Positions 2,687-60,304 of a stretch of DNA of 64,000 nucleotides are shown one piece after another. The stretch's first letter is position 1. Each line of letters begins with the position of its first letter. Location of the stretch: positions 219,522 to 283,521 of the forward strand of contig OZ252113.1 of NCBI GenBank assembly GCA_965248645.1, read 5' to 3'. Source of the DNA: Acidobacteriota bacterium. GTDB lineage: Bacteria > Acidobacteriota > UBA6911 > RPQK01 > G965248645. Position numbers and translations under genes: made by a program. The notes beneath the pieces were generated by a model. It worked only from the letters and a program-made list of their open reading frames with translations. It searched no databases and was not told the DNA's origin.

Positions 2687-3571
2687 ATGAAGTTGTATCT
2701 TAGCTTATTATTGGTCCTCCTGATGAGGCCAGGCATCACCTTTTTGGCTGCCAGTGATCGGGCAACCCAGGTTACGCTCTTCTTTACCGGTTTCGTACAG
2801 GGAGCATTCGAACCGTGTGGCTGAAAGGTAAGTCCCGCCGGGGGACTGGCTCGTCGAGCCGGTTACGTTAGCCATTATCGCAGGGAAAACGGGGGGTATG
2901 TCCTTCAGGTCGATTCGGGAAACTACTTTAAACCCTTGGGGACGAACGCTAGGATGATTAATCGATTAATGATCCAGAGCCTGGATCGATTACCCATTCA
3001 TGTATTTAATCTGGCTGCCGAAGATTTGTGGTTATGGCAAGAGCTGTCCAGGGCCCAAGTGGTTACCAGCATCATCTCGACTAACCTTGTTCCCCGTCGT
3101 TCCAATGTGCCTAGCCCGGCGCCGTTCTTCATCGTTGACGTACCCGGGCCTGAGGTTGGCCTCAACAAAAACGTTCGGATCGGCTTTCTGGGACTGGCCG
3201 CTCCAAATAGGATAAAACCCAATTCCGAGTTTTTGGCTCTGGACCCTCTAAATGCGGTGGCGGAAAGGAAAAGCCAATGGGCAGGAAGAGCAGATTTCTG
3301 GGTTGTCTTAACAGATTTACCCAGAGAAACTGCCCGTCAACTGGCCTTGGCGCATCCAGAGATTTATGCGATTTTGCTGGCAGAGAAAAGATTCATCCTT
3401 CATCCTCCTGAACAGGTGAACCATGCCGCCATTCTATCCAGCGTGGAGAGGGGACGCTACCTTGGTCGCCTAACTTTTGAGTTGGATGAGGCGGGTAATG
3501 TGGTTGGCCTAGAATCGGAGCTGATTGAATTGAAGAAAGGTGTTCCCGAAGATTCGACTCTGTTGAAATAA
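2687..3571 (+). pseudogene. Calcineurin-like metallophosphoesterase / 5'-nucleotidase N-terminal-domain homolog with an in-frame TGA (2822-2824) and degenerate metal-binding motifs
   Basis: The ATG at 2687 gives a signal peptide MKLYLSLLLVLLMRPGITFLAASD followed by VTLFFTGFVQGAFEPCG, the counterpart of ILHTNDIHGRLEP. A TGA follows, and the same frame continues with GGLARRAGYV...ENGGYVLQVDSGNYFKP (the LLDAGDxxQG motif) and NLAAEDLW (in place of GNHEFD). Then comes ADFWVVLTDLPRETARQLALAHPEIYAILLAEKRFILHPP, which corresponds to DVVIALSHLG..DLELAK.VPGIDLIIGGHSH. The catalytic H/D/N residues are replaced, and there is no C-terminal 5'-nucleotidase domain. Confidence 0.5.
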
Positions 3572-3611
3572 ATCTCAAAAGGGTGCTCGCATTGCAGATC
3601 GATCCGGACGG

Positions 3612-3917
3612 ATGATGATGAAAGGCCTCGGGTCTCTTCTTTCGGCGTTTTTGACGGATGTAGTGAAAGACCATGAGGTCACGTTGATTTTTTTGAAGGA
3701 ACTATGGCCGCAGATTGTGGGAAAAGAGTTGGCGCGAAGAAGTTGTCCCTTGGCTCTTCAAGGTTCGACTTTGCGGGTCGCGGTTCAGAGTGAGGTCTGG
3801 AGAGAAGAGCTCTGTGATCTTCACAGAATGTTGGTTCAGTCGATTAATGACTTTTGGGAATTGCCCCTAGTTGAGAAGATCGAATTTGAAAATCGTCTAC
3901 ATCAAGTTGGGAATTGA
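3612..3917 (+). CDS. dciA: DUF721 / DciA-like protein (putative helicase-loading factor)
   Basis: 101 aa. The block LWPQIVGKELARRSCPLALQGSTLRVAVQSEVWREELCDLHRMLVQSIN fits the DUF721 signature (W..IVG..LA.H..P..L..G.L.V.V.S..W..EL). Confidence 0.5.
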   Translation: MMMKGLGSLLSAFLTDVVKDHEVTLIFLKELWPQIVGKELARRSCPLALQGSTLRVAVQSEVWREELCDLHRMLVQSINDFWELPLVEKIEFENRLHQVGN

Positions 3918-4142
3918 ATAACCGTGGTCCCAGAAGGAACCAGCGTAATCGCTTTGCCGAGGAGGCAGTCTGTCCTCGACTCCCAGTCAAGGTGTGGCAT
4001 CCTCTTTGCTTGGGAGGGATTACGCTAAACGAACGCCGGAAAGACTCTTTAATGTCCAACGCAGCCTGTCTGTTGAGAAAGGTGCAGGGAAAGGGGTCAA
4101 AGGTATCTTGAAAAGGTGTAAACCTATAAACTCGCTCGCTCG

Positions 4143-6092: not shown

Positions 6093-6150
6093 GATCTGGA
6101 GCGCCTACTAGAAAACCCACCATAAAGCGCACACACAAATCCCTGGGTCC

Positions 6151-7080: not shown

Positions 7081-7093
7081 CACCCCTAATACC

Positions 7094-8767: not shown

Positions 8768-8782
8768 GGAGTAATTTCTGAA

Positions 8783-14758: not shown

Positions 14759-15715
14759 GTGCTTATGAGATTGTGGCTGATGCGCGCATTGTTTGCCATA
14801 ACCTTCACTTCAGTTACCCTCCTTCTGAGACCTTTTGAGTTTTCCTTCCACCAGGCTCTCCTTGCCGGACTTTTGCTTTCGGCCGCGGCCATACTCTTTG
14901 AAGTTAGGGTCCGAGACACTCCGGTGAGGAAACTCGTTGGAGCAGCCTTGGGCTCTATTTTTGGAATCCTTGGGGCATCTCTGATTAGTTTGGTGATCGA
15001 TAACCTGACATTCGTTTCCCAAAAAAACAGAAAGCTTCCTCCAAGTGCTCGTGTTGGCCGTCATGACCTATGTCGGATTGATTGTTGGAGTGACCAAAGG
15101 CAAAGAATTCAGCTTCCAAGGTAGTTTGTTTGGGAAGCGCGTGGACAGCAAATTGGCCAAGATTTTGGACACCAGCATCATCATCGATGGAAGAGTCGCA
15201 GATATCGTCGAAACAGGCTGCTTAGAGGGTCAGCTGATGGTTCCAGAGTTCGTCTTACGGGAGCTCCAAATGGTCGTTGACTCCGCGCGCGCCGACTCGG
15301 TCAAAAGGAGTCGCGTGGTCGTCGAGGTTTGGATATCCTCTCGAAGATTCAAAAGAAACCCAATGTCAACGTGCATATTGTCGAGCGGGACTATGCTGAA
15401 ATCAGAGAAGTTGACATGAAACTCATCGAGTTGGCCAGAGAGACGGGGGCTAAGATCGTGACCAATGATTTCAATCTGAATAAGGTGGCGCAGCTCCGCG
15501 GGGTTCAAGTACTGAATATTAATTAGCTGGCGTATGCCCTTAAGCCGGTGGTCTTGCCAGGCGAAACAATGAGAGTCTTCATTCTCAAGGAGGGCAAAGA
15601 GTATAATCAGGGTGTGGCCTATCTTAACGATGGCACGATGGTCGTAGTGGACCATGTGCGCCGTATGATCGGCAAAAGATATTTTGGTGACCACTGTGCT
15701 GCAGACCACCGCTGA
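14759..15715 (+). pseudogene. yacL: YacL-like PIN/TRAM-domain membrane protein, disrupted by two frameshifts and one in-frame TAG
   Basis: The N-terminal TM region is in frame 2 and shifts to frame 0 at the A7 run (15021-15027). The PIN domain reads [49 protein letters not shown] 2-nt indel near 15316 returns the reading frame to frame 2: [24 protein letters not shown]...[23 protein letters not shown]. The TAG at 15524 is followed in the same frame by [41 protein letters not shown], which is the TRAM domain. The order and sequence mirror Bacillus YacL. Confidence 0.6.
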
Positions 15716-15796
15716 AAAAATGATCTTTGGGAAATATCCAACCAATGGTGAAATGCAACACAAAGGGCACTACGAGCGGGAGCGGGTGTCGCGTTT

Positions 15797-16447
15797 TTGA
15801 TTGGTCTTATCTTGGCTGCTGCTGGCTCTGGCTGTCGCTTCGGATCTGCAATCCCAAAACAATTCACTTCTCTCCAGGGAAGAGCTCTCTATCTCCATGC
15901 GTTGGAGCCTTTTGCCGCGTTCGTCTCGCAGGTTTCTGTGGTTGTTCCTGAGACCTGGATTGAGCGAGTTGGCAAGCACCTTCAGTCCCTCTCTTATGCC
16001 CACAAGCTGATGGTGCAGATCGGTGGCCCACAACGCCAGGATTCTGTGTATGAAGGCTTAAAACGGCTGTCCCACTCGACCAAGATAGTTCTGGTTCACG
16101 ACGCGGTACGCCCTCTCGTTTCAGCGAGCTTGATTCGTAGAGTAATTCAAGGGACGCAATTAAACCGGGCCTGCATACCCGTTTTGCCAATACCGGAAAC
16201 GGTCAAGGAAGTGCTCGACGAGCAGGTTGTGGCTACTCTGGAGCGCCAGCGTTTACGACTTGTTCAAACGCCCCAAGGATTTGAAATCAATCTCTTAAGG
16301 CGGGCTCTTGAGGAGGCAAGGCAAGATGGTTTTTATGCCACAGATGAGTCAAGCTTGGTGGAGCGCATCGGACAGAACGTGTTTGTGGTTGCCGGGGATC
16401 CCGCCAATAGGAAGATCACCTGGAAAACTGATTTCGAGAGAATTTAG
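15797..16447 (+). CDS. ispD: 2-C-methyl-D-erythritol 4-phosphate cytidylyltransferase
   Basis: 216 aa. ILAAAGSGCRFG..PKQF, VLVHDAVRPL, and TPQGF motifs. TTG start inferred. Confidence 0.85.
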   Translation: MIGLILAAAGSGCRFGSAIPKQFTSLQGRALYLHALEPFAAFVSQVSVVVPETWIERVGKHLQSLSYAHKLMVQIGGPQRQDSVYEGLKRLSHSTKIVLVHDAVRPLVSASLIRRVIQGTQLNRACIPVLPIPETVKEVLDEQVVATLERQRLRLVQTPQGFEINLLRRALEEARQDGFYATDESSLVERIGQNVFVVAGDPANRKITWKTDFERI

Positions 16448-16960: not shown

Positions 16961-17059
16961 AAAGGTTAGTCCCCCTATGGCCGTCATTTCGATATTGGAA
17001 AAGCTCGGAATAGAACAAAATCAGTTCTGGGAGCTGAACGAGAATTAAGTTGAAATCTC

Positions 17060-17450
17060 GGCATTTTAAAGAAAGACTCCAGTAACCCGGTTACGAAAAT
17101 GGACCTGAGAGCTGAGGAAATAATTGTCAATAATTTACGGCTTCATTTTCCGGAGCATCAGATTCTAGCTGAGGAGCAGACCAACCGAAAAGGAACTTCG
17201 CCTTGCACTATCGATCCATTGGACGGAACCACCAATAACGCTCATGGCTATCGGTTCTTCTGTGTGTAGCTCTTACCTTGGAAATCGCAAGAGAAGTGGC
17301 TTGGGGAGTGGTCTGCGATCCCGCGGAGAGTTGTTTAGCGTGGAACGTGGAGCAGGCGCCTGTGTAAATTTCGGCCCATTGCAGTTTCGACCAAGGAGAA
17401 GCTAGAAAGAGATTGGCCTGTCCCGCTGCCATCCTCCGGGCAGAGGGGGG
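17060..17450 (+). pseudogene. Inositol-monophosphatase (SuhB/IMPase) family remnant: N-terminally truncated, with multiple frameshifts and stops
   Basis: Frame-hopping translation gives NPVTKMDLRAEEIIVNNLRLHFPEHQILAEEQ...CTIDPLDGTTNNAHGYRFFCV*, then VALTLEIAREVAWGVVCDPAESCLAWNVEQAPV*, then ERGAGACVNFGPLQFRPRRS*. These pieces are collinear with IMPase motifs (DPIDGTTNF.HG...F.VSIAL...GEPVLGVVYDP.....F.AERG.GAFLNG). Confidence 0.5.
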
Positions 17451-20471: not shown

Positions 20472-21040
20472 CTATTCTAGACCCTCATTTTCGCAAACGA
20501 TCTGAAAATCTCTTTAGAAGGGAGCATAGGTGGGAAAGTTATACAGAAGTATGTCCTTGGATTCTAACGTTGCTTTAACTCCGAGGATGAGCAGAATACT
20601 CTTGCTCCACCCATGGGCCTTCAACTCATTGTTTATGTAAGTTTACCTTGAGCCACCTCTTCTGTGGTGATCAACAGGAATGTTACCCACTGTGATAGAT
20701 TCACTTTCTCCGGCCATCTTCCTGGCCTAGAGGACGTTGCGAGGGTTTAACAGTGAATATTTCCTATCGACTCAGTATTCTAGGTCTACCACTTGTTCTG
20801 TGTCTAACACTGTAGTCAACTGGGTGTGGGAAGATGTCTCGCAGGTAAGCGTAGTACGACAGAGCCATGTACCCATGTACCCGCCGCGTATCCGGATGAT
20901 GTCTACCTGCGAACCACGTTCGAAGCGGGTTCAAAAAAGAAATAGAGTCCCTTGACTCTGGTTGTGTTATAGATCAGTGGCCTGTGCACTTGTACTCACT
21001 CCTTTTTATCCGGGATTTGTGCTAAAGTGGGGTAGGTTCC

Positions 21041-21673: not shown

Positions 21674-22072
21674 TGAACAGTTGGAACTCCTTGGAATAAA
21701 ACAAAAAACATTTGGTCGGGCTGTATTGAGGGGCGAGTCTTGCCAGCAAGTTCCTCTGGCTTACTTGCTCGAGCTTGGAGCTGTCTTTGTAACCCTGCGA
21801 AGTGACTCCCAGCTCCGGGGCTGTATGGGTTATCTCTCCGGTCTCTTCTCTTTTCTAAACCGTGGTGGAGGAAGAAACCCCCGAGTTGGAGATTGAGATG
21901 TCTCTTCTCGGTCCTTTGAAGGAGATTGAGGCATCGGCCAGAGATTAAGATCGGAAAGCATGGACTGATCTTGCCCCAGGTTGCCCGAGAATGGGAACGC
22001 TTTAGCATGTTCTTGCGAGATCTTAAAGCAGGACTCTTAACCGACGTGTGGACAAATGGAGCGCGAATGTAG
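21654..22072 (+). pseudogene. AMMECR1-domain protein (AmmeMemoRadiSam system protein A) remnant with frameshifts and stops
   Basis: MPLLTPDEQLELLGIKQKTFGRAVLRGE...LGAVFVTLRSDSQLRGCMGY gives the GAFVTL...LRGCIG core of AMMECR1. The frame is then lost. In other frames, EVSLLGPLKEIEAS and IKIGKHGLILPQVAREWERFSMFLRDLKAGLLTDVWTNGARM reproduce the AMMECR1 C-terminal half (G.DGLIL.....LLPQVA.E.GW..EEFL..LC.KAGL..DAW). Confidence 0.55.
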
Positions 22073-22110
22073 GTCTTCACGGTTGAGGTCCTTACCTAGC
22101 CACCACTTCA

Positions 22111-36730: not shown

Positions 36731-36784
36731 CTCCTCAAAAGCAGCTCCTCGGGGTAAGAGAACTTGACCTAATGGGCGTCTTTG

Positions 36785-38110
36785 TCAAAATGCTCGAAGC
36801 TTACATCTTTTTGAAATTAGGGCAAGAGCCTTTTCTATGAGCATGAGGGCGGGAGTCTTGAATCGATCAGGGCGGAAGGGTGTGGTGTCGATGCTAGTCG
36901 GCCGACCACTGACGAGTTCGGTGATGAGCTTGCCAGTCATGGCCGCTGCAGTGAGGCCGAGGTGCCCGTGACCGAAGGCAAAATAGACCGAATCGTGTTT
37001 GGGCGATCGACCAATGACGGGCAGGGAGTCGGGCATGGAGGGTCGGCAACCCATCCACCGTGTCGCGCCATCGGCGTTAACGTCGGGGAGGATGCGCCGT
37101 AGCGCATGAAGAAGATTGTCAGCACGGGAATAGTTTGGGGGTGCACCGATGCCCGCGAATTCCACGGTTCCGGCTAAGCGAAGTCCCGCCTGCATTGGCG
37201 TCATACCGAAATAGTAATCGCCACAAACAACTGCTCTCTTCAGCTCGATTCCGGGTCGGGGAAGCATGAGGTGATAGCCACGCTCTGTGTCTAATGGTAG
37301 TCTGCTGCCGAGCAGAGCCGCCAGTCCTTTTGAGTGTGCACCAGTAGCTAGAACCAGACGGTTCAGCTTGTGCCGACCTATATTTGTGCAGACTGTCGAT
37401 GAGCCTGCTGGCTCGATCTCAAAGCTGATTACCTTCTGTCTCAGGATATGCCCGCCGCGGCGAGTGAAGTCGAGAGCCAGCAGCTGGGTCAATCGAAGCG
37501 GATCAGTCGTGTGGGACGTTTCGGGGAAGAACACGCCACGGCTGAACTTGTCAGACAGAGTGGGCTCCAGTGCACCAATTTGTTTCGAATCAAGGAACTG
37601 AAGCTTGACACCCCGCCGCGCCAATAACTCAAACTTTGGCCTGGTTTTTTCGAAGGTCCGGTCAGTGAGAAAGACATCCAGCCGACCCTTGGGGACGATC
37701 AGATGTTCGGCCCTGGCCCGTCTGAGGAGGCAACTAAATGTTTCTAGTGGTTCTCGCGTCAGTGTGTACAATGCCTTGGCGATTGACTCGACGTGATTCA
37801 CTGAGCTAGCGGCGACGAAGCGGAGGAGCCAGGGAAGCAACCGCGGCAGGTAGCGCCAGCGGATAGTGAGTGGCCCCAGGGGATCAAGAAGCATACCGGG
37901 GACGGCTTTGACGATTCCCGGCATGCCCACGGGCACACAATATCCGGCCACAAACTGGCCTCCACTTCCCTGGGAACAACCTTCGCCAGGCCCCCCCTGG
38001 TCCAAAATGGTCACCTGGTAGCCGTCTCGTTGTAGATAGAGCGCACAGCACACACCTACGATTCCGGCGCCGATGACTGTTACCTGACTATCTTTTCCCT
38101 GCGGGCTCAC
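36785..38110 (-). CDS. FAD-dependent oxidoreductase, DAO family (D-amino-acid dehydrogenase / glycine-oxidase-like)
   Basis: 441 aa. N-terminal VTVIGAGIVGVCCALYL..G..V.ILD dinucleotide fold and the C-terminal GHGHLGLT motif. Confidence 0.75.
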   Translation of the reverse strand: MSPQGKDSQVTVIGAGIVGVCCALYLQRDGYQVTILDQGGPGEGCSQGSGGQFVAGYCVPVGMPGIVKAVPGMLLDPLGPLTIRWRYLPRLLPWLLRFVAASSVNHVESIAKALYTLTREPLETFSCLLRRARAEHLIVPKGRLDVFLTDRTFEKTRPKFELLARRGVKLQFLDSKQIGALEPTLSDKFSRGVFFPETSHTTDPLRLTQLLALDFTRRGGHILRQKVISFEIEPAGSSTVCTNIGRHKLNRLVLATGAHSKGLAALLGSRLPLDTERGYHLMLPRPGIELKRAVVCGDYYFGMTPMQAGLRLAGTVEFAGIGAPPNYSRADNLLHALRRILPDVNADGATRWMGCRPSMPDSLPVIGRSPKHDSVYFAFGHGHLGLTAAAMTGKLITELVSGRPTSIDTTPFRPDRFKTPALMLIEKALALISKRCKLRAF

Positions 38111-39861
38111 CTGGATAACGCTCTCCGTTCACGAAGGCATTTCGTGGCTCTCTGATCAATGGTGGGGAGTGTACCGTCGATGATAGCGACACCATATGCT
38201 TCTTCAGCATGCCCGATTGAGATCTTCTGCTCGATCACATCGAGCAGCACGTGTCGCGGGTCACGCTGGAACGGGTCGCCGTAGCCCCCTCCCCCGGCGG
38301 TGACGTGGCGAAATAGTTCGCCGCGGCGAAGCAAAACAGGATTCATCGGCAGAACGGGTAGGATGGTCTGGGCTGGGCCCGGATTAACTAAGTTCCACGA
38401 TGGTGCACCCTCTTTGCCACCGAACAGGCCGTAAGGCCGGTGACTTCGCTTGTCGGAGCGGACGTTAAGGGACAGTTTGTCAGCTAACACCCGGTAATCC
38501 CGTACGACAGAGAGCCCGCCGCGGTGTTTACCTGGGCCGCCAGTGTCGGGCAGGAATCCATATCGCTCAATTTGAAGAGGCTGCTCCACCTCGATCATTT
38601 CGATCGGTACGTTGGCGACGTTCGCTCCCAGGTGTGGCACTCCCTCCTGGCCGTCGTGGAAAGCCGTAGCTCCCCAGCTTCCCATCAGGCACTCACAAAA
38701 TACAATGGGTCGGCCATCCTTCCATCCACCAAAGGTCGGAAGAGTTGAACCGCCACTTCCGTCGGCAGCGACTCGTTTGGGTACGGCCTGGGCCAAGGCG
38801 CCGAAGAGACAGTCGATCATACGGTAACCCGTGATACCCCTAGCGCCAGTCGGGCCGGGAAAGGTGGGATTGGCAATCGATCCGCTCGGTGCCGTTACCG
38901 AAATTGGGCGGGTATAGCCATGGCAGTTGGGAACATCTTGGTCCATGATGCTGCGCAGGGCCGTATAGGCACAGGAGCGAGTGAAGGGTAATGGAGAGTT
39001 AACGCCTCCTGCAATCTGAGTGGAGGAACCGCTCCAGTCGACATGAACCCTATCATTTTCAACGCTCAGAGTGACCTGTAAGACAATTGGCTGCGGATCA
39101 TCCCCGATACCGTCAATATGATGTCTAAATTGATAGGTCCCGTCAGGGATCTTGGCAATGTGGGCGCGGGAAAGATGCTCCGCATAGTCGTGCAGGTGCT
39201 CGATATAGTGGCCGATCGTCTGGTAGCCATACCTCGCGATAAGCTGCTGCAACTCACGCTCTCCTGTGGTGGCTGCGGCCATTTGTGCCTGGAGATCCCC
39301 CAAGACCTTGTCGGGTGTGCGGACATTAGTCGCGATGAGGTCCCAGATGGCCTGATTGGGTTTGCCTTTCTCGACGAACTTGATGAGGGGGATGCGCAAC
39401 CCTTCCTGGTAAATCTCGACTGCTCCCAGTGCGTTTCCGCCAGCTACGATACCTCCCACATCGCTGTGGTGGGCAATAGTTGTAGCCCATGCGGACAGTA
39501 TCCCCTCGGCAAAAATAGGCTTGATGATGTAGATGTCGGGCAGGTGCTGTCCCGCTGCGGTGTAGGGATCGTTGCAGATAAACACGTCGCCGCTGGTAAT
39601 GCGGCCCTGGTAACGGTTGATCAACAGGCGCATTGTGTCGTAGAAGCTGCCCAGGTGCATCGGTACCGTCACGCCCTGGGCCACGGTCTGGCCTTTTGCG
39701 TCACAGATCGCAGTTGAAAAGTCCATCGCGTCACGGACAATTCCGGAATAGGAGGTACGCATGAGGATGAGAGCCATGTTATCGGCAATCGTATCGAAGG
39801 CGTTCTGAAGGACCTCGAGCAGAAAAGGGTCGATGTTAGTGAAGGATTTGGAGACTGCCAT
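38107..39861 (-). CDS. hyuB: Hydantoinase B / 5-oxoprolinase subunit (HyuB family)
   Basis: 584 aa. Beginning DPFLLEVLQNAFDTIADNMALILMRTSYSGIVRDAMDFSTAICDAKGQ, typical of Hydantoinase_B. 4-nt overlap with the downstream oxidoreductase. Confidence 0.85.
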   Translation of the reverse strand: MAVSKSFTNIDPFLLEVLQNAFDTIADNMALILMRTSYSGIVRDAMDFSTAICDAKGQTVAQGVTVPMHLGSFYDTMRLLINRYQGRITSGDVFICNDPYTAAGQHLPDIYIIKPIFAEGILSAWATTIAHHSDVGGIVAGGNALGAVEIYQEGLRIPLIKFVEKGKPNQAIWDLIATNVRTPDKVLGDLQAQMAAATTGERELQQLIARYGYQTIGHYIEHLHDYAEHLSRAHIAKIPDGTYQFRHHIDGIGDDPQPIVLQVTLSVENDRVHVDWSGSSTQIAGGVNSPLPFTRSCAYTALRSIMDQDVPNCHGYTRPISVTAPSGSIANPTFPGPTGARGITGYRMIDCLFGALAQAVPKRVAADGSGGSTLPTFGGWKDGRPIVFCECLMGSWGATAFHDGQEGVPHLGANVANVPIEMIEVEQPLQIERYGFLPDTGGPGKHRGGLSVVRDYRVLADKLSLNVRSDKRSHRPYGLFGGKEGAPSWNLVNPGPAQTILPVLPMNPVLLRRGELFRHVTAGGGGYGDPFQRDPRHVLLDVIEQKISIGHAEEAYGVAIIDGTLPTIDQRATKCLRERRALSR

Positions 39862-41993
39862 CAGTTTTGTTTTAGGTCGATTATAATGTTGTCCAGATCG
39901 TCAATCCTGACCCAACAATGGGGGGGAACAACGACAGTCGCCTCATACTCTTCGATGACTAAAGGTCCATTTCGCGGAGACGTTGTTAGCCCACTGCGAC
40001 CGACCACCGCTGTCTGTACCACACCGACTTGCTGTCCGAAATAAGCCTTCCGTGTCGTCTCCGGTCTACTCTGGTTGTTGTGGCAGCGACGGAGCATGGG
40101 AGCAGGTTGCGGACGGATCGTGCCCACCACCCGCAGGTTCACCGTTTCCAGAGGGTATTCACCCGAGAAACGGTGTCCATAGATGCGCTCATATTCGACT
40201 TCAAAGCGCCTGGAGAGTTCGCCGATCACCTTTTCGTCAATATCCAGTCCCGGCAGTGGGATCATCAGTTCGTAGGCTTGTCCAGTATAGCGCATGTCAG
40301 CGAAGCGTTTGTATGTGACCCTGGAGCTAGCCAGACCCATCTGGGCAGCTGCCTCCTTCTCCAGTTTTGCATATAGGTGTCCAGCGCCATCAACCGTCAT
40401 CTGCACCGTTGGTTTTAGATAGGAGCGGCTGATATTGACCTGCATATTCGCGAGCAGTAGCCCCAATGCACTGAATACACCTGCGACTGGTGGAATCATG
40501 ACTTGTTTGATTCGAAGTTCCCGTGCCAGAGCAACGGCGTGAATCCCACCACTCCCCCCGAAGGCCATCAGAACGAAATCTCGAGGGTCTCTTCCCCGAT
40601 AGGTGGTGACGGCCTTAATCGAGCGGATCATGTTTGAGTTGGCGATTTCATAGATGCCATATGCTGTCTCCATGAGTTCTCGACCCAGGGGTTCAGCCAC
40701 CTGCGATCGGATGGCTCTTTCGGCCAGACCGGCATGGATTGGTACAGTTTCCCCTGCCATAGATCGGGGATTGAGATAACCGAGAATCACGTTGGCATCG
40801 GTCACCGTGGGTGCCTGGCCACCTTGGCCGTAGCAGGCCGGACCTGGGGACGCACCAACGCTTTGCGGGCCTACTTTAATCATGCCGACTTTGTTCAGCC
40901 GGACTATACTGCCGCCGCCAGCGCCCACTTCCGCGATGTCTACAACCGGGAGTTTTAGGGCATATCCACCACCGTTGACGAGGGGGCTCGCTACTGAAAC
41001 TGAATCCTCGCAGCCGACCTCATAGTCCGTACAGACGCTGAAATTCCCCTGTTCGATCACCGACACTTTAGCGGTTGTTCCTCCCATGTCGAAAGAGATC
41101 AGATTCAAAACATTGCTGGTTTGGCCCACTGCTGCAGCACCAATCACGCCCGCAGCCGGGCCGCACTCGATGATCTGAGCTGGCTTGTCCATAATCGCGT
41201 TTGCGTCCAATATCCCTCCACTGGACTGCATGACCATCAGCCGACCGTTGATCCCTGTGGCTTTCAGTTTCTGGCTAAGCGATCGTAAGTAATGGCTTAC
41301 GGGAGGACCGACATAAGCATTGATGACGGTGGTGCTGGTACGCTCGTACTCACGCATCTGAGGCAGCACATCAGCGGAAAGCGAAATGAAACAGCCCGGA
41401 AGCTCTTGGCTCAGGATTTGGCCTATGGTTCTTTCGTGTACGTCATTGGCATAGGAATGGAGCAAACAGACGGCTACGGCATCCACATTCGAGGCTTTGA
41501 TTATCCGGACCGCACGATCCACGTCTTCCAGATTCAGGGAGGTCGTTATTTGGCCTGTTGCATTAACGCGTTCCCCAACTTCGAGTCGAAGCCGTCTTGC
41601 TACCAGCGGTTTAGGTTTCACATACAAGAGATCATACAGACGCGGAAGACGGGTTCTCCGTAGCTCCAGTACATCGCGGAAGCCACTTGTAGTAATCAAG
41701 GCCGTTTTGGCACCCTTGTGCTCCAGAATAGCATTGGTCGCGACCGTGCAAGCGTGCAGCACCTGCTCGATCTTGTCAGGTGTTAGGTCTAGGCTCTGGT
41801 TTAAAGCATGGATTCCCTGGATCACACCATTGGCGTAGTTGGTTGGCGTCGAAAGCAGCTTCCATGTGGTGATGGCACCGTCGGCTGCCACATGGGCAAC
41901 GTCTGTGAATGTTCCCCCTATGTCGATGGCAATGCGGTGAGAGTGAACACTCATACACTCGCTACCAGAAGCAGGTTCAGAGCAGACGACCAT
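39861..41993 (-). CDS. hyuA: Hydantoinase A / 5-oxoprolinase subunit (HyuA family)
   Basis: 710 aa. IAIDIGGTFTDV and the second ASKHA-fold motif DMGGTTAKV. 1-nt overlap with hyuB. Confidence 0.85.
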   Translation of the reverse strand: MVVCSEPASGSECMSVHSHRIAIDIGGTFTDVAHVAADGAITTWKLLSTPTNYANGVIQGIHALNQSLDLTPDKIEQVLHACTVATNAILEHKGAKTALITTSGFRDVLELRRTRLPRLYDLLYVKPKPLVARRLRLEVGERVNATGQITTSLNLEDVDRAVRIIKASNVDAVAVCLLHSYANDVHERTIGQILSQELPGCFISLSADVLPQMREYERTSTTVINAYVGPPVSHYLRSLSQKLKATGINGRLMVMQSSGGILDANAIMDKPAQIIECGPAAGVIGAAAVGQTSNVLNLISFDMGGTTAKVSVIEQGNFSVCTDYEVGCEDSVSVASPLVNGGGYALKLPVVDIAEVGAGGGSIVRLNKVGMIKVGPQSVGASPGPACYGQGGQAPTVTDANVILGYLNPRSMAGETVPIHAGLAERAIRSQVAEPLGRELMETAYGIYEIANSNMIRSIKAVTTYRGRDPRDFVLMAFGGSGGIHAVALARELRIKQVMIPPVAGVFSALGLLLANMQVNISRSYLKPTVQMTVDGAGHLYAKLEKEAAAQMGLASSRVTYKRFADMRYTGQAYELMIPLPGLDIDEKVIGELSRRFEVEYERIYGHRFSGEYPLETVNLRVVGTIRPQPAPMLRRCHNNQSRPETTRKAYFGQQVGVVQTAVVGRSGLTTSPRNGPLVIEEYEATVVVPPHCWVRIDDLDNIIIDLKQN

Positions 41994-42628
41994 TTCACAC
42001 AGCAGGTGGAGACAGGGATGTGTTCTTTTTTCTCCAATGCTATCTTGGCTGTATAAAAAGGGTTAGCGAATAGTTCAGATCTGTGGGGAATAGGATACCA
42101 GACGGGCCAGGCGATCATTGGATAACTAGCCAGAGCACGATGGGTGAACGATTGTGGTTGCAGGAAAGAATGACGTCGAAATCCCAACACTGGGGTGCTC
42201 ATGCCATTATTCCTCTAAAAGGGGTGCTTGCTGCCGGCGAACGAACTGGTGGAGAGCAATACCATAGGCTAGGGACCCATGCTGCCCATTCACTGGGCAA
42301 AGTCTGCATCGGTTGCTTTCCTTGTGATGGAATAGTCGCATAGGTGGCTGTAACTGGACCGAATTTAAAGCGGCCAGCTTGAGCCACTGTGCCACTCAGG
42401 AGTAAATGTTTCAAGTCATCAGGCACCACAGCCTCGTTATCGAGATGTCTCTTCATGGCGTGCCTGATGATCAGATCTGGCAAATCATCGACTTCATCAA
42501 CGACGCCCGCTCAACATATGTAGTCAGAAAGTTAAGCGGGGATTGTAGAGCGTAAAGGACGGGTCGCACTTTCAGAAGGAGACTAATTGTCATGGCTCCA
42601 AACACCTACCTCCTGGATGCAAATTACT

Positions 42629-43678
42629 ATGTGACCAATGGGGTATCCACTGGACTCAGGTAACCACAACATCTTGTGGTTGGGCTCACGGGGCCTCGGC
42701 GTCCCAGTCGGCGACGATCGATCGATACGGCGTTGGGTCCACGGCGACTGCCTGCTGCACAAGGCGGTAGAAGAGTTTTCCCCGGCTGCGTGAGTTGCGC
42801 CGGTTGAAGCGGAACACAAACTCGTCGAGGTAGTAGTCCAGATGCTCGTGGCTAACCGCGCCTTGGTGCGTGCCCAGCAGCCAGCGCTTGAGCAACGAGA
42901 TCGCTTGGTGCACCCTCGGCAATAATTCCGAGGCCTGCTTGCGGCGGCCCGACAGAAAGACGATGCGATGCTGGTAGCCCTTCTTCTCCAGCGGCTCGTA
43001 GCCCAGCCAGCCGTCGGTGTGCACCAAGCTTCCCGGCTCGACCGACTCCTCCACGAAGGGCATCAAACTGGCCGCCGATGCGTTCCGCACGCGCTGCGTG
43101 CGGATCCGTCCTAGCCCGCGGCCTCTCCCTTCCGCGGCTACTTAAATCAATGCTTTACGCTCGTTCTGCCGGCCGCTAACACCCTCTTACTCAGCGCCCC
43201 AATAGGTCTCATCGACCTCGACTACGCCCGCCAATCGCTCCCGCCCCGGACGCACCATCGCTCGCCGCAGCTTGTGCATCCAGGTCCACGCAGTTTGATA
43301 GCGGCCCAACCCGAGAACGCGCTGCAGACCCAGCGCGCTGACCCCGTTATTTTGCGAAGTGACGTGCCAGATCGCCCGGAACCACAGCCGCAGCGGCTTA
43401 CGTGTGTCTTGGAAGATCGTGCCCGAGGTCACCGACGTCTGCCGCCCGCAGCGAGCGCATTCGAACCACACTTTGCGCACCGGCCATGCCCGCTCATGCC
43501 CGCATCCCGGACAGTGGAAACCCTCCGGCCAGCGCAACGCAGACAGATAGTCGCGACAGGCCTCTTCGCTGGCGAAGCGTACCTCGAACTCGAGCAGGTC
43601 GCGTGGACAATCCTCCACGAAGGCACATACTACATCTTGGGGTCACCTGAGTCAAGTGGATATCCCATTGTGACCATA
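42629..43678 (-). mobile_element. IS1595-family (ISXO2-like) insertion sequence, ~1.05 kb, with ~50-bp imperfect terminal inverted repeats. The transposase is inactivated.
   Basis: The left end 42629-42678 (tatgtgaccaATGGGGTATCCACTGGACTCAGGTAACCACAACATCTTGT) is the reverse complement of the right end 43630-43678 (ACTACATCTTGGGGTCACCTGAGTCAAGTGGATATCCCATtgtgaccata). About 40 of 50 positions match. The repeats bracket the transposase ORFs exactly. Confidence 0.65.
42686..43618 (-). pseudogene. IS1595-family transposase (N-terminal zinc ribbon + DDE domain) interrupted by two in-frame TAA codons
   Basis: N-terminal part CPGCGHERAW...FECARCGRQTSVTSGTIFQDTRKPLRLWF...VEVDETYWGAE. Then TAA, then EGVSGRQNERKALI, then TAA, then VAAEGRGRGLGRIRTQRVRNASAASLMPFVEESVEPGSLVHTDGW..Y, all in one frame. 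This is collinear with the ISXO2-like transposase (VEIDETYIGGKEKNKH...GRGAVGKTPVVG..ER.GKV.A.VV.......L..FV.E.V.PGS.V.TDE...Y). Confidence 0.7.
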
Positions 43679-43773
43679 AGCGGTAGCAAGTTTCTTTTCT
43701 CCTTCGTGGTCAAAGTGAGGTCCGAGAACTGGGTTTGCTTTGGATTTGACGAGTCGTTAAAGTAAGGTCCTAC

Positions 43774-44724
43774 ATGGTGGAGGGTAACTTGACGGTGGAT
43801 AATGAACCGCAGGTGTTCTTGAACGGGAGATTCATTGCTGCCTCCCAGGCTTCGCTCGCGATCTATGACTTGGGTATAGTTCTCGGTGCGACGGTGACCG
43901 AAATGACCAGGACCTTTCGGCAACATCCCTTCCGACTGGGTGATCACATCGCACGCCTATACCGCTCCTGCCGCTATGCGCGTATTGCTCCACCTTTTGA
44001 TCAAATTCGCATGAGTGAGGTGTCGAAGCGGCTAGTCGAGAACAACGCCCGTCTTCTGCTCCCGGATCAGGAGCTGGGACTCATCCACTTCCTGACGCCA
44101 GGGGAGTGCTCCATTTACTCAGGATCAGCAAGGCTTGATGAAGAAATGAGTCCAACCCTCTGTATTCATACCTTTCCCCTTCCTTTTGATCACTTCGCTC
44201 ACTTCTTCATTAAGGGAGCCCATGTGGTGACTCCTTCGATTCGCCACTTGCCACCCCAGTGTGTGGAATCGAAGATGAAGCATCGTAGTAGAATGCATCA
44301 GTGGCTAGCCGATCAGGAAACGCGCCAGGTCGATCCACGGGCAGTGACTCTTTTCCTCGATCTGGACGGGAACGTTACCGAGACGAGTGGGTCCAATTTC
44401 GCCATCGTCCAGGATGCCAAGGTCATTGCCCCTACCTTTCGCAACACCCTGCCAGGGATAAGCCTTTTAACCGCGAAAGAACTGTGCGCAGAACTAGGTA
44501 TCGGATTTGAGCAACGTGACTTCAGGGTCTATGATGTGGTGACCGCCGATGAGGCAATGCTTTTAACCACACCCTATTGTATGGCTCCTGTAACAATAAT
44601 TAATGGGGTTTCTATCGGTTGCGGAGAAGTTCAAGGGCCCATTTTCCAAAAGCTCATTGAAGCCTGGGGACGGCGTGTCGGGGTGGACATCATAGCGCAG
44701 GTCACTCAAGGGGTTTCTACGTGA
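43774..44724 (+). CDS. Class IV (fold-type IV) aminotransferase: D-amino-acid / branched-chain aminotransferase family
   Basis: 316 aa. VFLNGRFIAASQASLAIYDLGIVLGATVTEMTRTF......L.DH..RL..S......P and the overall length fit the Aminotran_4 family. The subtype cannot be assigned. Confidence 0.7.
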   Translation: MVEGNLTVDNEPQVFLNGRFIAASQASLAIYDLGIVLGATVTEMTRTFRQHPFRLGDHIARLYRSCRYARIAPPFDQIRMSEVSKRLVENNARLLLPDQELGLIHFLTPGECSIYSGSARLDEEMSPTLCIHTFPLPFDHFAHFFIKGAHVVTPSIRHLPPQCVESKMKHRSRMHQWLADQETRQVDPRAVTLFLDLDGNVTETSGSNFAIVQDAKVIAPTFRNTLPGISLLTAKELCAELGIGFEQRDFRVYDVVTADEAMLLTTPYCMAPVTIINGVSIGCGEVQGPIFQKLIEAWGRRVGVDIIAQVTQGVST

Positions 44725-46906: not shown

Positions 46907-47716
46907 ATCACACCTGACGGTCTAAAGATCAGTGGTCAGCGGGTAACGGACTGCGTACCGCGCCTTCCCTCGGTCAAGTATTGGTCCAAGCTCACAGCAG
47001 CTTGGTCGATCACTATCCCATTGTAGGCACAGAGGGAAGTGAAGCGTCAAGGCTCGAGTCGTTATTCCAGCTCGACTGCTTTTGAAAAAGCTTCAGGATG
47101 TTTTCATTGTTGCCTTGCTTGGTACAGATGTACACCTTTTCCCTCAAGAGAGACGCTTGTATTTTTTGGAATGGACATACTCAAGGGCTTGGCGAGCACC
47201 TGGTGTGCTAAAGTGTGTTGGTTCTACCAAATAATGGAATCGGCAATTTCTCTCGCCGATTCGACGAAGAGGTATTCTCCATTGGGCAGAGACCTCGACG
47301 AAGATATCTTCTTTGACGCAGCTTGAATCAACCCTTCCATTCAGTAGGTGTAAGAGGTGTGTGCAGACCTGCGCTCAGATCTCCGAGAGCCAGAGTGAAC
47401 GTTTGCCAACTTGCATAATCGTTGGAATTCATCTAGTTCGACTGTGTTGGGCTCGGTTGTCCTCCTCGACCCGAGTGCACTGGTACGTCTGTGGGGGTCT
47501 CGGTTGCAACGTCTGGTCAAGCTGTCCCTTTGAGCGTTTCACCAACTTCCGGTGTGGGACATACGGGCTAGGTCTATTTCCCCTTTCTCCCGGCTGCATC
47601 GCTGCCACCGCTCGCTTGATCAAAGTGCGAGGGTCGTTACCTTCAAAGATTTTCCCGGCTATTCGAATCTGATAGCGCATAGCTTCTCCCTGTCCATTTG
47701 GCTGTCTTTCTCATGA

Positions 47717-50538: not shown

Positions 50539-51717
50539 GTGGCGAAAGACATCCTTTACGTGATCGATGGCAAGCAGAAAATCCCGTTTCTGCGCGGTAT
50601 GATGACCCATTCTCTGATCGGTCGTGGTCTGAGCTTTGATGAAGCCTACCAGACGGCGACCTCAATTCGAGATCAGGTTGGACCAAAAGGGGAGATTCGT
50701 AAGGAGGAGTTGAGTCAACTCATTGATTCCGTCTTGCCGGAGGATTCTCGGCAAGGGGGAGCGAAGAAAGATTCTCCGATCGGGGTCAGCCGGACCATTC
50801 TTGTCAAAGATGAGGACTCAGTCACCCCTTTTAGCAAGGGAGTCCTTTCTCAGTCCCTGCAAGCCTCTGGTCTCGAGCCTTCTGTCTCCTACGACATCGC
50901 GCGAGAAACAGAAGCATACTTATTAGAAAAGGATCCAACAGAGGTAACCCGGGATGAACTTCGCCGATTGATTTATGAAACGATCATGCAGAACCACGAC
51001 CGCAAGTTCGCCGAGAGATATCTTCTCTGGAGATGTTTCAAATCCCCGGACAAACCCCTGATTATTTTGTTTGGTGGTGCCACTGGAACCGGAAAAAGCT
51101 CGATCGCCGCAGAGGTTGCCTACCGACTGGGGATTCAGAAGATTGTTTCTACGGATACGATTCGACAGATCATGCGGATGATGTTTTCGAAAGATCTTAT
51201 GCCAGCTATTCACTATTCTTCATATGAAGCCTGGAAAGATATCTCTTGGTTGGAGGGAGATCCGTCGGGGGCTGTCGTGGAGGCTTTCAGACAACAGGCG
51301 CTCCTGGTTTTGGTAGGAGTCAAGGCCATGACAGAGAGAGCTATCCAAGAGAACTCCAGTGTGGTGGTCGACGGAGTCCATCTGGTTCCTGGTTTAATAG
51401 ATCTTGAAGAGTTTGAGGATAAGGCCTACATTGTTCCTCTGGTCATTTCCACCCTCAACCAGGAGAACTATCTCAAGCGCTTTCCAAGCCGCCAACGCCA
51501 GGCCTCCAATCGATTAGCCCACCGCTATCGGGAAAATTTCAAGTATATCCTAGAGATCCAGGATTACATTCTTGAGATGGCTGATCATCACGCGACACCG
51601 ATTAGTGAGAACGATAATCTGGATGACACAGTGGCTCCAATTCTCACCGTAATCTCCCATTCCCTTCAACAAAAGCTGAAGATCCGAAGTGAAGACCTCG
51701 TCACCAGGGCCTTGTAA
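50539..51717 (+). CDS. 2-phosphoglycerate-kinase-like P-loop kinase with N-terminal ATP-cone domain
   Basis: 392 aa. ATP-cone-like YVIDGKQKIPFLRGMMTHSLIGRGLSFDEAYQTATSIRDQV, then Walker A ILFGGATGTGKSSIAAEVAYRLGIQKIVSTDTIRQ, as in archaeal 2PGK homologs. Confidence 0.55.
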   Translation: MAKDILYVIDGKQKIPFLRGMMTHSLIGRGLSFDEAYQTATSIRDQVGPKGEIRKEELSQLIDSVLPEDSRQGGAKKDSPIGVSRTILVKDEDSVTPFSKGVLSQSLQASGLEPSVSYDIARETEAYLLEKDPTEVTRDELRRLIYETIMQNHDRKFAERYLLWRCFKSPDKPLIILFGGATGTGKSSIAAEVAYRLGIQKIVSTDTIRQIMRMMFSKDLMPAIHYSSYEAWKDISWLEGDPSGAVVEAFRQQALLVLVGVKAMTERAIQENSSVVVDGVHLVPGLIDLEEFEDKAYIVPLVISTLNQENYLKRFPSRQRQASNRLAHRYRENFKYILEIQDYILEMADHHATPISENDNLDDTVAPILTVISHSLQQKLKIRSEDLVTRAL

Positions 51718-52938
51718 GGGCCTTATCCTGATCCAGGATGGGATTGGTGATCGACCCATTAAGGCCTTCGAGTATAGTACTCCTTTGGAAGCCGTAGCCA
51801 CCCCATCAATGGATGCTTTAATCTGTGGGGGAATTGCCGGTCAAATGGACATTTGTGAGCCAGGAATGAGGGTAGGCACAGACGTTGGACATCGTCCACT
51901 TTTTGACCAAAAAGTGGACGATCGGGTTCATATGAGGGGACCGATGGAAGCTGTAGGAGAGGGAATTTCACTTCGCCCCGGGGATATGGCACTGCGCTGT
52001 AACTTTGCTACCGTGGATGGAAACTTCAGAGTCGTTGACAGACGTACCGGTCGAATCCGCGGCGAAGCTCTTGAGTTGGCGAACAGCCTCATCAGGTCTA
52101 TCCGGATCATGGGGTGGTGAAGGTTCTATTTCGTGCAGCCACTGAACATTAGGCTGTTCTGGTGCTGCAAGGTTTATCGGGCCAGATCTCGGACTCCGAT
52201 CCGGGAACCCACAACCGCGGGTTGCCCGTCAGGAAGGTTCGTCCGTTTACTAAGAATGTGGGTGCCAGGCGAGCGGCAAATTTAGTCAATGAATTTGTAG
52301 GAAAGTCGTATTCCATTCTCAAGAATCATCCTTTGAATCTCCAGCGTCAGCGTGAGGGGAAACTGCCAGCTAACATCACTATTACTCGAGGTGCAGGAAC
52401 TCAAGGCCAGTATCGAGATCTTCCCGCAGAACTAGGGCTCCGAGTTGCTTGCATCAGTGGTGACTGTACCGTGCTCGGGATTGCCCGACTCTCAGGTGTT
52501 GAGGCTATTTCGACTAGCGAGATGACAGGTAATCTGGACACCAATCTCGCCGAGAAACTCGAAAAGGTCATCGAAGCTCTTCACGACTCTGACCTGGTAT
52601 GTCTCCATCTGAAAGGTTGTGGCGTAGCAGGGCACTATCGTTAACCTGAGCTCAAGCGGTGGTTCATTGAGCAGACTGACGCCCTGTTGGGGAGCATCGT
52701 GAAAGAGGTGGATCACTGGAAATATCTCTATTTTTCTCTCACTGGTGACCACTTCACGCCTTGCTCCCTGGCTGGGCATAGTTCCGATCCCCTACCGGTT
52801 TTTCTGACGGGGGCGGGTGTGCCAGTGGATGGAGTGGTTACCTATGGCTAGCGCTTCTGTTCCAAGGGAGAGTTGGGCCGTATTCGCTGCCAGGATTTTT
52901 TTGCCATGCTCTTCAGCTGTCTACGTGGATGGGACTAA
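51689..52938 (+). pseudogene. apgM: Cofactor-independent phosphoglycerate mutase, archaeal type (ApgM), disrupted by one frameshift and three in-frame stops
   Basis: GLILIQDGIGDRPIK...TPLEAVATPSMDAL...RPGDMALRCNFATVD...VDRRTGRI is in frame 2 and shifts at the GGGG run (~52112) to frame 1: GVVKVLFRAATEH, TAG (52150), AVLVLQGLSGQISDSDPGTH..PVRKVRP...EFVGKSYSILKNHPLN...ANITITRGAG...LHLKGCGVAGHYR, TAA (52642), PELKRW...TGDHFTPCSLAGHSSDPLPVFLTG, TAG (52849), RFCSKGELGRI. Every segment is collinear with the ApgM consensus. The predicted stop falls at 52936-52938. Confidence 0.65.
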
Positions 52939-55480: not shown

Positions 55481-55492
55481 CGCAAGTGGGGG

Positions 55493-57060: not shown

Positions 57061-57127
57061 TCGTCGTGTCGGTAATCTACCATAACTCTCCAGGGTCGAA
57101 AAACTGACTTTCCGGTAGGATCGCCTT

Positions 57128-57865: not shown

Positions 57866-58060
57866 GAGTTGATATGACGAGTAGGGATCTTTTCTGGATA
57901 TTGATTATTGAACAGAGAGGGGGGGGATGGGAAGTACTTCATGTCGGCTCCCATTTCAACGGTTGTAGGGTGGAAGCGGTGGGGGTGATCCGATAGCCAT
58001 CCCGCTGATCTAATGATACAATTCTCCCCCCTGATTGGGTCGAAGCAGGTTGGTGAGTTT

Positions 58061-58813: not shown

Positions 58814-59044
58814 GACCCTTCTGTCGTCGACATTCTCACCCCGCCGACTCAGCTTTTTACCGCGTAACTCCGAAACAGGTTTCAAACTCAAGCTTTGAAA
58901 CACTCAAACTCTCGCTGTCTAGTGTACGATGATTCACGTTGAGCAGGAAAAAGCCGTGAGTTCTTTCAGAATTAGAATAGACTCAGGAACCTTGGTGATG
59001 AGGATCAATGGTTTCGTCAGCTTTCGCAGGTATCATCCTCAAGG

Positions 59045-59560
59045 ATGATTATTATCGGTGTCGATCCCGGAAGCCGAGTAACCGGCTACGGAGTTATTGA
59101 AGTGGAAGGAAATCATTTGCGCTGTGTTCGGTACGGAGCCATCGAAGTGTACAGAACCGGAGCAAAGAGTCTTGCCGAGCGTCTCAAGAGGATTCATGAA
59201 GAACTATGTGCTCTGTTGCAATGCCACTGCCCCAGTGTTCTGGCAGTGGAAGATTTATTCTACGCAGTCAACGCCAAAACCGCGCTAAAGCTGGGACACG
59301 TTCGGGGGATTATTCTCTTGGCGGCTGCTCAGGGCGGTATTTCCTTGGCTGAATACTCCCCGCTGGAAGTGAAGAAAGCCGTGGTTGGTTATGGTCGAGC
59401 CCAAAAGAGCCAGATACAGCAAATGGTCCGAGCACTCTTAAATTTGCAGCAAGAACCCCAACCTCACGATGCAGCGGACGCTCTTGCCATTGCCATCTGT
59501 CATGCCTTCAATGGATCACTAACCCGGCGTAGACGAAGACGTTGGAGTGGTCTCCCGTGA
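59045..59560 (+). CDS. ruvC: Crossover junction endodeoxyribonuclease RuvC
   Basis: 171 aa. IIIGVDPGSRVTGYGVIE and the C-terminal D.ADALA.A.CH. There is no ruvAB downstream. Confidence 0.9.
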   Translation: MIIIGVDPGSRVTGYGVIEVEGNHLRCVRYGAIEVYRTGAKSLAERLKRIHEELCALLQCHCPSVLAVEDLFYAVNAKTALKLGHVRGIILLAAAQGGISLAEYSPLEVKKAVVGYGRAQKSQIQQMVRALLNLQQEPQPHDAADALAIAICHAFNGSLTRRRRRRWSGLP

Positions 59561-59579
59561 CCTTCCCGGAATGGCTATA

Positions 59580-60304
59580 GGCAGATCAGTTGAGCACGGG
59601 TCGCTCCTAGTGGGCGACTCGCTTCCAGGACCGCGATGATGGGTCTGTAACCACACGTGGAAATGTTGCAGCGGTGCACCACTTCGCATAGTCCTCGGCT
59701 GTTCAGGCGGAGGATCATCTCTAGTGCGAGGTTGGTCTTTCTCTGCGTTTGATTCAGCAGATTCGTAGTGATTCATGTTCGAGCTGGCGACCAACAATAC
59801 CGGTTTTGGTGTCTGCGAAATGACCTTTGTCAGGGTGGCTTCCAACTCAATCAGGCGCTAATAGTCGTGTATTCTCAAGGCCAGGGGAACAAATTGAAAG
59901 TCGTTTTCGAGGAAGTACTGAATAAAAGGTAGATGAACTTCTAAGGCGTGCTCTTGGCGATGGGCCGCAGGGTTTTCCCGAACCTGTTTACACATTCGAC
60001 AAATCTCTCTGGCCAGAACGGAATCCAGTGTCACCCGGCCAATGGAGTTTCCCAGAACTCATCGGAAACAATTGAAAGAGGAGTATCTAGGTCAAGGTGG
60101 TTGGGCCCCAGCAAGATAAATCGTCGAGGAAACTTTACCGTAGCATCCGCCAAGTTTCCCGAGTAGCTATACCCGGCGCGGGGTATCATTATCCCTTGGG
60201 AAGAAGATGAATTGGATCTGTGGGATGTGCCGTTTTAGTGAAGCTAGTAGCTTTCCTGGTTTCGCTGGATAAAATCTCCCAGCGACGGTTTCCCTCCGGA
60301 TCAT
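59580..60304 (-). pseudogene. Memo-like protein (AmmeMemoRadiSam system protein B) remnant with frameshift and in-frame stops. Its ATG overlaps the grpE stop.
   Basis: The minus-strand ATG at 60304-60302 overlaps the grpE TGA (ATGA). MIRRETVAGRFYPAKPGKLL (Memo start AVAGSFYP.DP..L), then in another frame GIMIPRAGYSYSGNLADATVKFPRRFILLGPNHLDLDTPLSIVSDEFWETPLAG, TGA, HW...RFVECVNRFGKTLRPIAKSTP, TAG. These are collinear with MEMO1 (PHAGY.YSG..AA.AY.......R.FILGPSHH.......LS....W.TPLG). Confidence 0.5.

Follow-up and report, generated by a model that had tools for sequence, protein, structure and literature searches.

What does it mean when several genes in one stretch of a bacterial chromosome are interrupted by stop codons and frameshifts, while the housekeeping genes around them are whole? 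We addressed this question in a 64-kb stretch of contig OZ252113.1 of an Acidobacteriota bacterium (hereafter the window), a chromosome-scale contig of 3,761,457 bp; the window carries ~55 intact genes. The original prediction, made from the sequence alone, listed seven broken loci among them and took these as a sign of ongoing reductive genome evolution, for example in a recently host-restricted or slow-growing lineage. Our reading is that the window contains six vertically inherited pseudogenes and one transposase fragment, all drifting neutrally, and that the seventh listed locus, a gene for a 5'-nucleotidase-like protein, is a functional selenoprotein gene of the PCGU type in which UGA encodes selenocysteine (Sec). 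We consider this reading, taken as a whole, likely. That the gene decay seen here is real and ongoing we conclude with high confidence.

Three-frame translations were scanned against Pfam to identify each locus, and lesions were mapped by frameshift-aware alignment of an intact orthologous protein to the DNA of each region. Of the seven loci claimed to be broken, six indeed are (yacL, suhB, AMMECR1, an IS1595-family transposase, apgM and a Memo-like gene; Table 1), while the 5'-nucleotidase-like gene is not. The earlier coordinates were essentially right, except that the minus strand of the Memo-like gene and a yacL frameshift at ~15674 had been overlooked. Two further yacL frameshifts lie at ~15310 and ~15023, the latter within a run of seven A bases (15021-15027), confirming the report of one lesion in a homopolymer, and a TAG stop at 15524 stands where the ortholog encodes Glu. 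When aligned to an intact 412-aa ortholog (P0134, 61% identity), the apgM pseudogene shows a frameshift at ~52092-52116 and the stops TAG 52150 (Arg), TAA 52642 (Gln) and TAG 52849. The suhB remnant has at least four frameshifts and two stops and has lost ~64 codons (compared with the open reading frame (ORF) of L006), and the AMMECR1 remnant has one frameshift and four stops and has lost ~40 codons (compared with the 207-aa ortholog of L082, 43% identity). The Memo-like pseudogene carries frameshifts at ~60220, 60041, 59731 and 59583 and one stop at 59860, with several codons gone (compared with P0254, 52%). The transposase has a zinc ribbon (PF12760, E = 3e-12) and a whole ISXO2-like DDE domain (PF12762, E = 5.9e-30, positions 1-153 of 153), the latter interrupted by TAA stops at 43189 and 43144, with no certain frameshift (compared with the transposase of L167, 32% identity).

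Intact counterparts of these genes exist elsewhere. Syntenic yacL orthologs of 348-382 aa are intact in four relatives (L002, L007, L010 and L014), the suhB slot of relatives holds an intact gene of 264-267 aa, and intact apgM, Memo and AMMECR1 orthologs were found in other genomes. In one relative, the metagenome-assembled genome (MAG) L028 (CBDCMH010000011.1, 12411-13537), suhB is split into two overlapping ORFs and was flagged as broken by 14 queries of the control described below; suhB may have been lost in parallel there, or the assembly may contain a frameshift. Within the window, the lesions are strongly clustered: at least 26 fall in the ~5 kb of the broken loci and none in 50.5 kb of intact coding sequence (P ~5e-11 under uniformly distributed errors). 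The housekeeping genes named as intact by the original prediction were confirmed to be so in the window. When nine large intergenic gaps were scanned in six frames against Pfam, only one transposase fragment, absent from the earlier list, was added, and a low-stringency tblastn search of relatives' ORFs against the intergenic gaps gave only chance-level matches.

Table 1. Broken loci, the selenoprotein gene and associated elements, in coordinates of the window.
Feature	Position	Strand	Description
yacL pseudogene (PIN/TRAM membrane protein)	14759-15797	+	PIN domain; 71% identity to the intact 348-aa ortholog of L014; nearly full length
suhB (inositol monophosphatase family) remnant	~16990-17450	+	Pfam Inositol_P, positions 26-109 of 271 only; heavily eroded
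AMMECR1 (AmmeMemoRadiSam protein A) remnant	21674-22080	+	Pfam AMMECR1, E = 1.2e-10
DDE_Tnp_1_4 transposase fragment	~32315-32474	+	Profile positions 329-381 of 435, E = 4.4e-9
IS1595-family transposase pseudogene	42686-43650	-	Zn_ribbon_IS1595 and whole DDE_Tnp_IS1595
apgM (cofactor-independent phosphoglycerate mutase, archaeal type) pseudogene	51689-52938	+	PhosphMutase and Metalloenzyme over two frames; nearly full length
Memo-like (AmmeMemoRadiSam protein B) pseudogene	59520-60304	-	Pfam Memo matches in three stretches
UshA-like (5'-nucleotidase-fold) PCGU selenoprotein gene	2687-3571	+	Intact; single in-frame TGA, no frameshift; 294 aa
TGA read as selenocysteine	2822-2824	+	Codon 46, motif FEPCG-U-K; same codon TGA in other lineages
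Candidate SECIS-like hairpin	2844-2864	+	9-bp stem, 3-nt loop starting with G, from 22 nt after the U of UGA

Two independent assemblies of closely related strains allowed these lesions to be compared across samples. Strain B (ena:ERZ25067264 ctg836451_25x_l; 1.98 Mb, 25x coverage) is 99.2-99.7% identical to the window over 58.4 kb of it, and strain C (ena:ERZ25072076 ctg236344_3x_l; 81.5 kb, 3x) derives from a separate sample. The same frameshifts and stops are present in both strains, in agreement with the earlier argument against assembly artefacts. Within yacL, AMMECR1, apgM and Memo, the window and strain B do not differ by a single indel, and therefore all frameshifts and stops of these four genes are common to both; yacL is likewise free of indel differences from strain C. 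The apgM fragments of strains B and C show an identical split into 143, 160 and 79 aa.

The few indels that do separate the window from strain B are tolerated in remnants and spacers only. Three occur in pseudogenes, namely two 1-nt events in suhB (17167 and 17271), at both of which strain C also differs from the window, and a 23-bp deletion in the insertion sequence (IS) of strain B (43234-43256); six occur in intergenic DNA. Two were scored in intact coding sequence. One is an in-frame 18-bp tandem repeat (36590-36607, M-G-R units) in the C-terminal part of a short-chain dehydrogenase, present in the window and not in strain B, which is a length polymorphism within an intact gene. The other is a 1-nt event at 48316, at the boundary base of lexA, which we read as the placement of an alignment gap at the intergenic edge. 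Thus, within intact genes, the window and the 25x assembly differ by no indel that breaks the frame. The 3x assembly of strain C, on the other hand, has six 1-nt indels in otherwise intact genes, with dnaB and aroDE split in its gene calls, and so shows what assembly error looks like. Since 3x HiFi assemblies create false frameshifts, agreement between assemblies is the right test. Fourteen homopolymers of seven or more bases within intact genes of the window are all unbroken, and just one lesion sits in such a run. We conclude that the lesions are biological and not sequencing or assembly errors.

Divergence between the strains demonstrates that the remnants have been released from constraint. 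Between the window and strain B, substitutions number 158 in 45,893 bp of intact coding sequence (3.44 per kb), 65 in 7,695 bp of intergenic DNA (8.45 per kb) and 47 in 4,814 bp of pseudogenes (9.76 per kb; P = 1.2e-8 for pseudogene versus coding divergence). The highest between-strain divergence, 18.7 per kb, is that of the IS1595 transposase; when this locus is omitted, the pseudogene rate is 7.5 per kb, near the synonymous divergence (pS) of 6.5 per kb (0.0065). Substitutions in the remnants are uniform across codon positions (17/11/20, P = 0.27), while those in intact genes are not (46/35/79, P = 5e-5). The remnants evolve at the intergenic rate, without purifying selection. One count runs the other way: the ratio of nonsynonymous to synonymous changes in the remnants (28:20) is no different from that in intact genes (89:71) and is below a simple neutral expectation, in counts so small that the comparison has no power. 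Relative to the distant orthologs (45-71% amino-acid identity), synonymous sites are saturated.

The remnants stand at different stages of erosion, with yacL and apgM almost full-length, and no more divergent from their orthologs than adjoining intact genes are, and with suhB, AMMECR1 and Memo heavily eroded. This span from nearly full-length to heavily eroded fits an ongoing process. We propose that each locus had already lost its function, through point nonsense mutations and small indels, when the three sampled strains split, and that the remnants have drifted neutrally since then, with suhB and the insertion sequence still gaining indels in individual strains. Taken together, the differing stages of erosion and the indels still accruing suggest that purifying selection has been lost on a set of dispensable functions and that deletion is slow. 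AMMECR1 and Memo, both recognisable partners of the AmmeMemoRadiSam system, are dead, which suggests that a function was lost as a whole and that the hits were not random.

The remaining locus, at 2687-3571, tells a different story. Its product has no match in Pfam. A homolog search with it recovered 120 relatives, in which full-length homologs (305-320 aa) have cysteine (Cys) at the position of the TGA; the motif C-G-C is invariant in 47 sequences. About one third of the 120 homologs are called as N-terminally truncated proteins of ~230 aa. In all four truncated genes that we inspected, which come from different lineages (L161, L162, L169 and L170/L171), a TGA lies at exactly the same codon with conserved flanks, and these four gene calls are thus truncated because of the Sec codon. 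L169 is an NCBI groundwater MAG (GCA_016211085.1); strain B also carries the TGA. Cys-form genes (L172 and L173) have TGC or TGT at this codon. The product matches the NCBIfam model NF041198 (UshA_like_PCGU, UshA-like (seleno)protein) with E = 2.7e-30, and NF049981 (UshA-like (seleno)protein family 2) matches as well. On these comparisons, we read the gene as a working selenoprotein gene, with UGA predicted to be decoded as selenocysteine, and not as a pseudogene.

These findings also modify what had been claimed for this gene. The call of a 5'-nucleotidase-like fold was right: an AlphaFold model of the Cys-form ortholog P0002 (53% identity to the window protein; predicted local distance difference test score (pLDDT) 93.4) matches N-terminal domains of 5'-nucleotidases (probability 1.0, template modelling (TM) score 0.72), so that the window protein is predicted to have the 5'-nucleotidase (calcineurin-like) fold. 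The metal ligands are indeed lost, as had been noted; however, their substitution is typical of the whole family and is not decay. Similarly, it had been argued that stop codons are not reassigned here, as all three end intact genes. They do so (TGA 30, TAA 13 and TAG 11 times in the window), but local recoding of UGA to Sec was overlooked.

Several points weigh against a functional selenoprotein gene. The score against NF041198 is 105.5 bits, under the cutoff of 275, since the match extends over no more than the N-terminal half of the profile (positions 5-271 of 519). SelA, SelB, SelD and tRNA-Sec are all missing from the 64-kb window, which has no tRNA at all and no Rfam match. A candidate hairpin resembling a selenocysteine insertion sequence (SECIS) element follows the TGA, and in an RNAalifold analysis of five Sec-type sequences it pairs in 5/5, with one compensatory pair; Cys-type genes form a shorter, weaker hairpin at the same A-R-R-A codons, and the hairpin is therefore weak evidence.

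The UshA-like family showed three further features. The distant homolog P0120 (507 aa) fuses an UshA-like PCGC domain to a multiheme cytochrome c domain (Cytochrome_C554), a fusion which hints that the CGC/CGU family may take part in extracytoplasmic redox or electron transfer rather than act as a phosphoesterase. In L162 (2700-2900), stops occur in the expected signal-peptide region of the Sec-type gene, upstream of an FFTGF motif; a frameshift, an assembly error or the use of another start codon could account for these. Finally, sample ERZ25067264 contains at least three Acidobacteriota chromosomes with this family, namely strain B (Sec), a circular 4.10-Mb contig (Sec) and a 1.34-Mb contig (Cys), and therefore both forms coexist in one community.

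We then asked how dense the pseudogenes are. The window has 6-7 dead loci versus 55 intact genes, or 10-11% (95% confidence interval (CI) 4-22%). For comparison, a single detection scheme was applied to the region of dnaB ±10 kb at 38 related loci, 699 kb in total; this control was filtered for conserved antisense-ORF artefacts (dnaB, hppA), and an hppA artefact that kept recurring was set aside manually. In these 38 relatives, 3 conserved genes are broken versus 409 intact (0.7%). The same dnaB neighbourhood of the window has 2 broken versus 13 intact (Fisher P = 0.011 against the relatives), and the whole window has 5 non-mobile pseudogenes versus 54 intact genes (P = 0.001 against the relatives). 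Therefore, the density is locally elevated, and the unusually high density claimed by the original prediction is borne out at this scale. In total, 78.9% of the window is intact coding sequence, 7.8% pseudogene and 13.3% intergenic.

How far do other explanations account for these data? Were the lesions artefacts of sequencing or assembly (indels in homopolymers of long reads, for instance, or mixed strains collapsed into one consensus), then the yacL frameshift in the A7 run would be in a likely place, and the strain C assembly proves that 1-nt indels can be introduced into genes. Such errors would nevertheless have to recur identically in three assemblies from different samples, one of them at 25x, to take the form of nonsense substitutions in at least 11 cases and of codon losses in suhB, AMMECR1 and Memo, to give neutral rates of divergence, and to spare all intact genes with their long homopolymers; we consider error very improbable and effectively refuted already. 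It is hardly credible, in turn, that the broken frames are recoded by programmed frameshifts and stop readthrough, leaving the genes functional. The UshA-like gene is read in this way, with UGA as Sec, but the other loci carry stops of all three kinds (TAA, TAG, TGA) along with shifts of +1 and -1, have no slippery motif at the sites, have lost conserved segments, have acquired further indels between strains and evolve at the intergenic rate, in a window where all three stop codons end intact genes. The UshA-like gene itself might be a relic, with a TGA inherited from a Sec-using ancestor and the Sec machinery since lost. All four of its differences between the window and strain B are nonsynonymous, as a relic would allow, yet this 4:0 split is not significant, and the divergence of 4.5 per kb is near the intact-gene rate. 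The reading frame stays open before and after the TGA, with the signal peptide and invariant motifs preserved, and the TGA would be the sole lesion of the gene, against two or more in each true pseudogene of the window. We regard a relic as improbable and retain the selenoprotein reading.

The remaining question is how far beyond the window the decay extends. One proposal is that the whole lineage is in an early, still-active phase of decay, with ~10% pseudogenes genome-wide, weak purifying selection and slow deletion; we advance it tentatively, as possible rather than probable. Equally, these may be real pseudogenes at an ordinary background level, several dispensable genes having been lost here from a genome that is neither rich in pseudogenes nor reducing, an alternative which has a substantial chance of being correct without being the favoured one. 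Much of what we found sits uneasily with reductive evolution and suits the latter. The examined stretch is just 64 kb, possibly atypical, and 12.6 kb of additional flanks in strain B, which with the window make up the census, have no broken genes. The 3.76-Mb contig is similar in size to relatives' chromosomes (3.6-4.1 Mb), and its GC content also resembles theirs, with no AT bias in the window (GC ~51%, range 49-57%). In the window, dnaB and the repair genes uvrC, ruvC and lexA are all intact; no insertion-sequence expansion is seen there, only two dead IS remnants and no live element. In the related MAG L028, suhB is split as well. An ordinary background accords poorly, however, with the contrast between about 8-11% (95% CI 3-22%) locally and 0.7% in 38 relatives, with an intact coding fraction of just 78.9%, with several unexplained intergenic stretches of 570-940 bp, and with the ratio of nonsynonymous to synonymous polymorphism (pN/pS) of intact genes between strains, 0.39. 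This last value is compatible with a small effective population size, yet is also expected at such low divergence.

Of the original claim of ongoing reductive evolution, the real and shared decay, the neutral rate and the local excess thus stand, while other classic marks are absent from the window, where nothing points to host restriction, an IS bloom, the loss of repair genes or AT drift. Genome-wide reductive evolution, a small effective population size and an ecological cause are matters that we only infer, as is the reductive evolution of a host-restricted lineage. The closest DnaB matches are from uncultured Acidobacteriota MAGs (66-79% identity), the best being 'Acidobacteria bacterium AH-259-G07' and another being titled UBA6911, and the record titles of relatives name groundwater, cold-seep (CSMAG) and sediment-type sources, not hosts. 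A sponge origin was suspected from the metaMDBG-style contig names, and metaMDBG is in fact employed in sponge genome notes; this idea was dropped, as nothing links the samples to sponges and the relatives' titles point elsewhere. If decay were lineage-wide and the habitat like that of the relatives, this could be a free-living population of sediment or the subsurface rather than a symbiont, an unusual setting for the persistence of pseudogenes.

Several other features of the window deserve mention. Its GC content is ~50%, apart from a richer block of 55-57% at 36001-44000 that contains an FAD oxidoreductase (DAO), homologs of hydantoinases B and A, two small ORFs and the dead IS1595 transposase; this block looks like a horizontally acquired island, and strain B has it too. 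Three long non-coding stretches (26754-27689, 936 bp; 46907-47716, 810 bp; 20472-21040, 569 bp) gave no matches to Pfam, Rfam or relative-derived sequences, and two of the three contain 1-nt indels between strains; they may be pseudogenes worn past recognition. An ATP-cone gene (50539-51717) lies directly upstream of the dead apgM, which it overlaps by 29 bp. Though intact, it differs between strains by 5 nonsynonymous changes and 1 synonymous change and may be next to undergo relaxation. Strain C alone carries a ~3-kb insertion between grpE and clpB (L167 12481-15464; site at ~61514-61526 of the window), with an intact 318-aa IS1595-family transposase, two N6/N4 DNA methyltransferase genes, one of which has a restriction-endonuclease-like domain, and a small ORF. 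ARAGORN found no tRNA in the 64-kb window, an Rfam scan of it had zero matches, and promoter and terminator scans near yacL and suhB gave no signal above the shuffled level. A metagenome scan with Dxr returned only soil Acidobacteria (~52% identity), in which the common block is just rseP-dxr-cdsA-uppS, and nothing for apgM or Memo.

The accumulation of pseudogenes under relaxed selection or genome reduction is a textbook phenomenon in Mycobacterium leprae, Sodalis glossinidius, Shigella and Yersinia pestis. As in those cases, genes that are intact in relatives have been inactivated here by nonsense mutations and small indels and are interspersed among intact housekeeping genes, and the remnants show mixed stages of erosion, neutral divergence and a lowered coding density. 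Unlike M. leprae, in which 30-40% of genes are pseudogenes, ~10% of loci are affected here, in one window, and unlike the textbook cases there is no IS expansion, visible loss of repair genes, AT drift or evident genome shrinkage. A literature search found no description of such gene decay for Acidobacteriota. If the local density were to hold genome-wide, this would be documented active gene decay in the phylum, backed by three strain-level assemblies, and it would offer an uncultured lineage in which inactivation events could be dated and indel and deletion bias measured.

The two protein systems involved can be compared in the same way. The AMMECR1 and Memo homologs are recognisable as parts of the AmmeMemoRadiSam system (AMMECR1, Memo and a radical SAM enzyme), and the best Memo homologs are named 'AmmeMemoRadiSam system protein B'; unlike in that system, both are dead, they lie 38 kb apart instead of adjacent to each other, and the window contains no gene for the radical SAM partner. 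The UshA-like protein shares with NF041198 and NF049981 the P-C-G-U/C at the first metal-binding motif of 5'-nucleotidases, an UshA-like fold, an N-terminal signal peptide and the existence of Sec and Cys forms. It differs from NF041198 in that the window protein (294 aa) is without the C-terminal half, in place of which P0120 has its multiheme cytochrome c domain. With this half absent and the match partial, we therefore place the window protein in a shorter acidobacterial sister family and not in the equivalog. Overall, the phenomenon is the familiar accumulation of pseudogenes under relaxed selection, and the selenoprotein is of a kind already modelled by NCBIfam. We regard the window as a well-documented yet fairly ordinary case of gene decay, of value chiefly as a clean example found in three assemblies and as a warning that an in-frame TGA in this clade must be checked for selenocysteine before a pseudogene is called.

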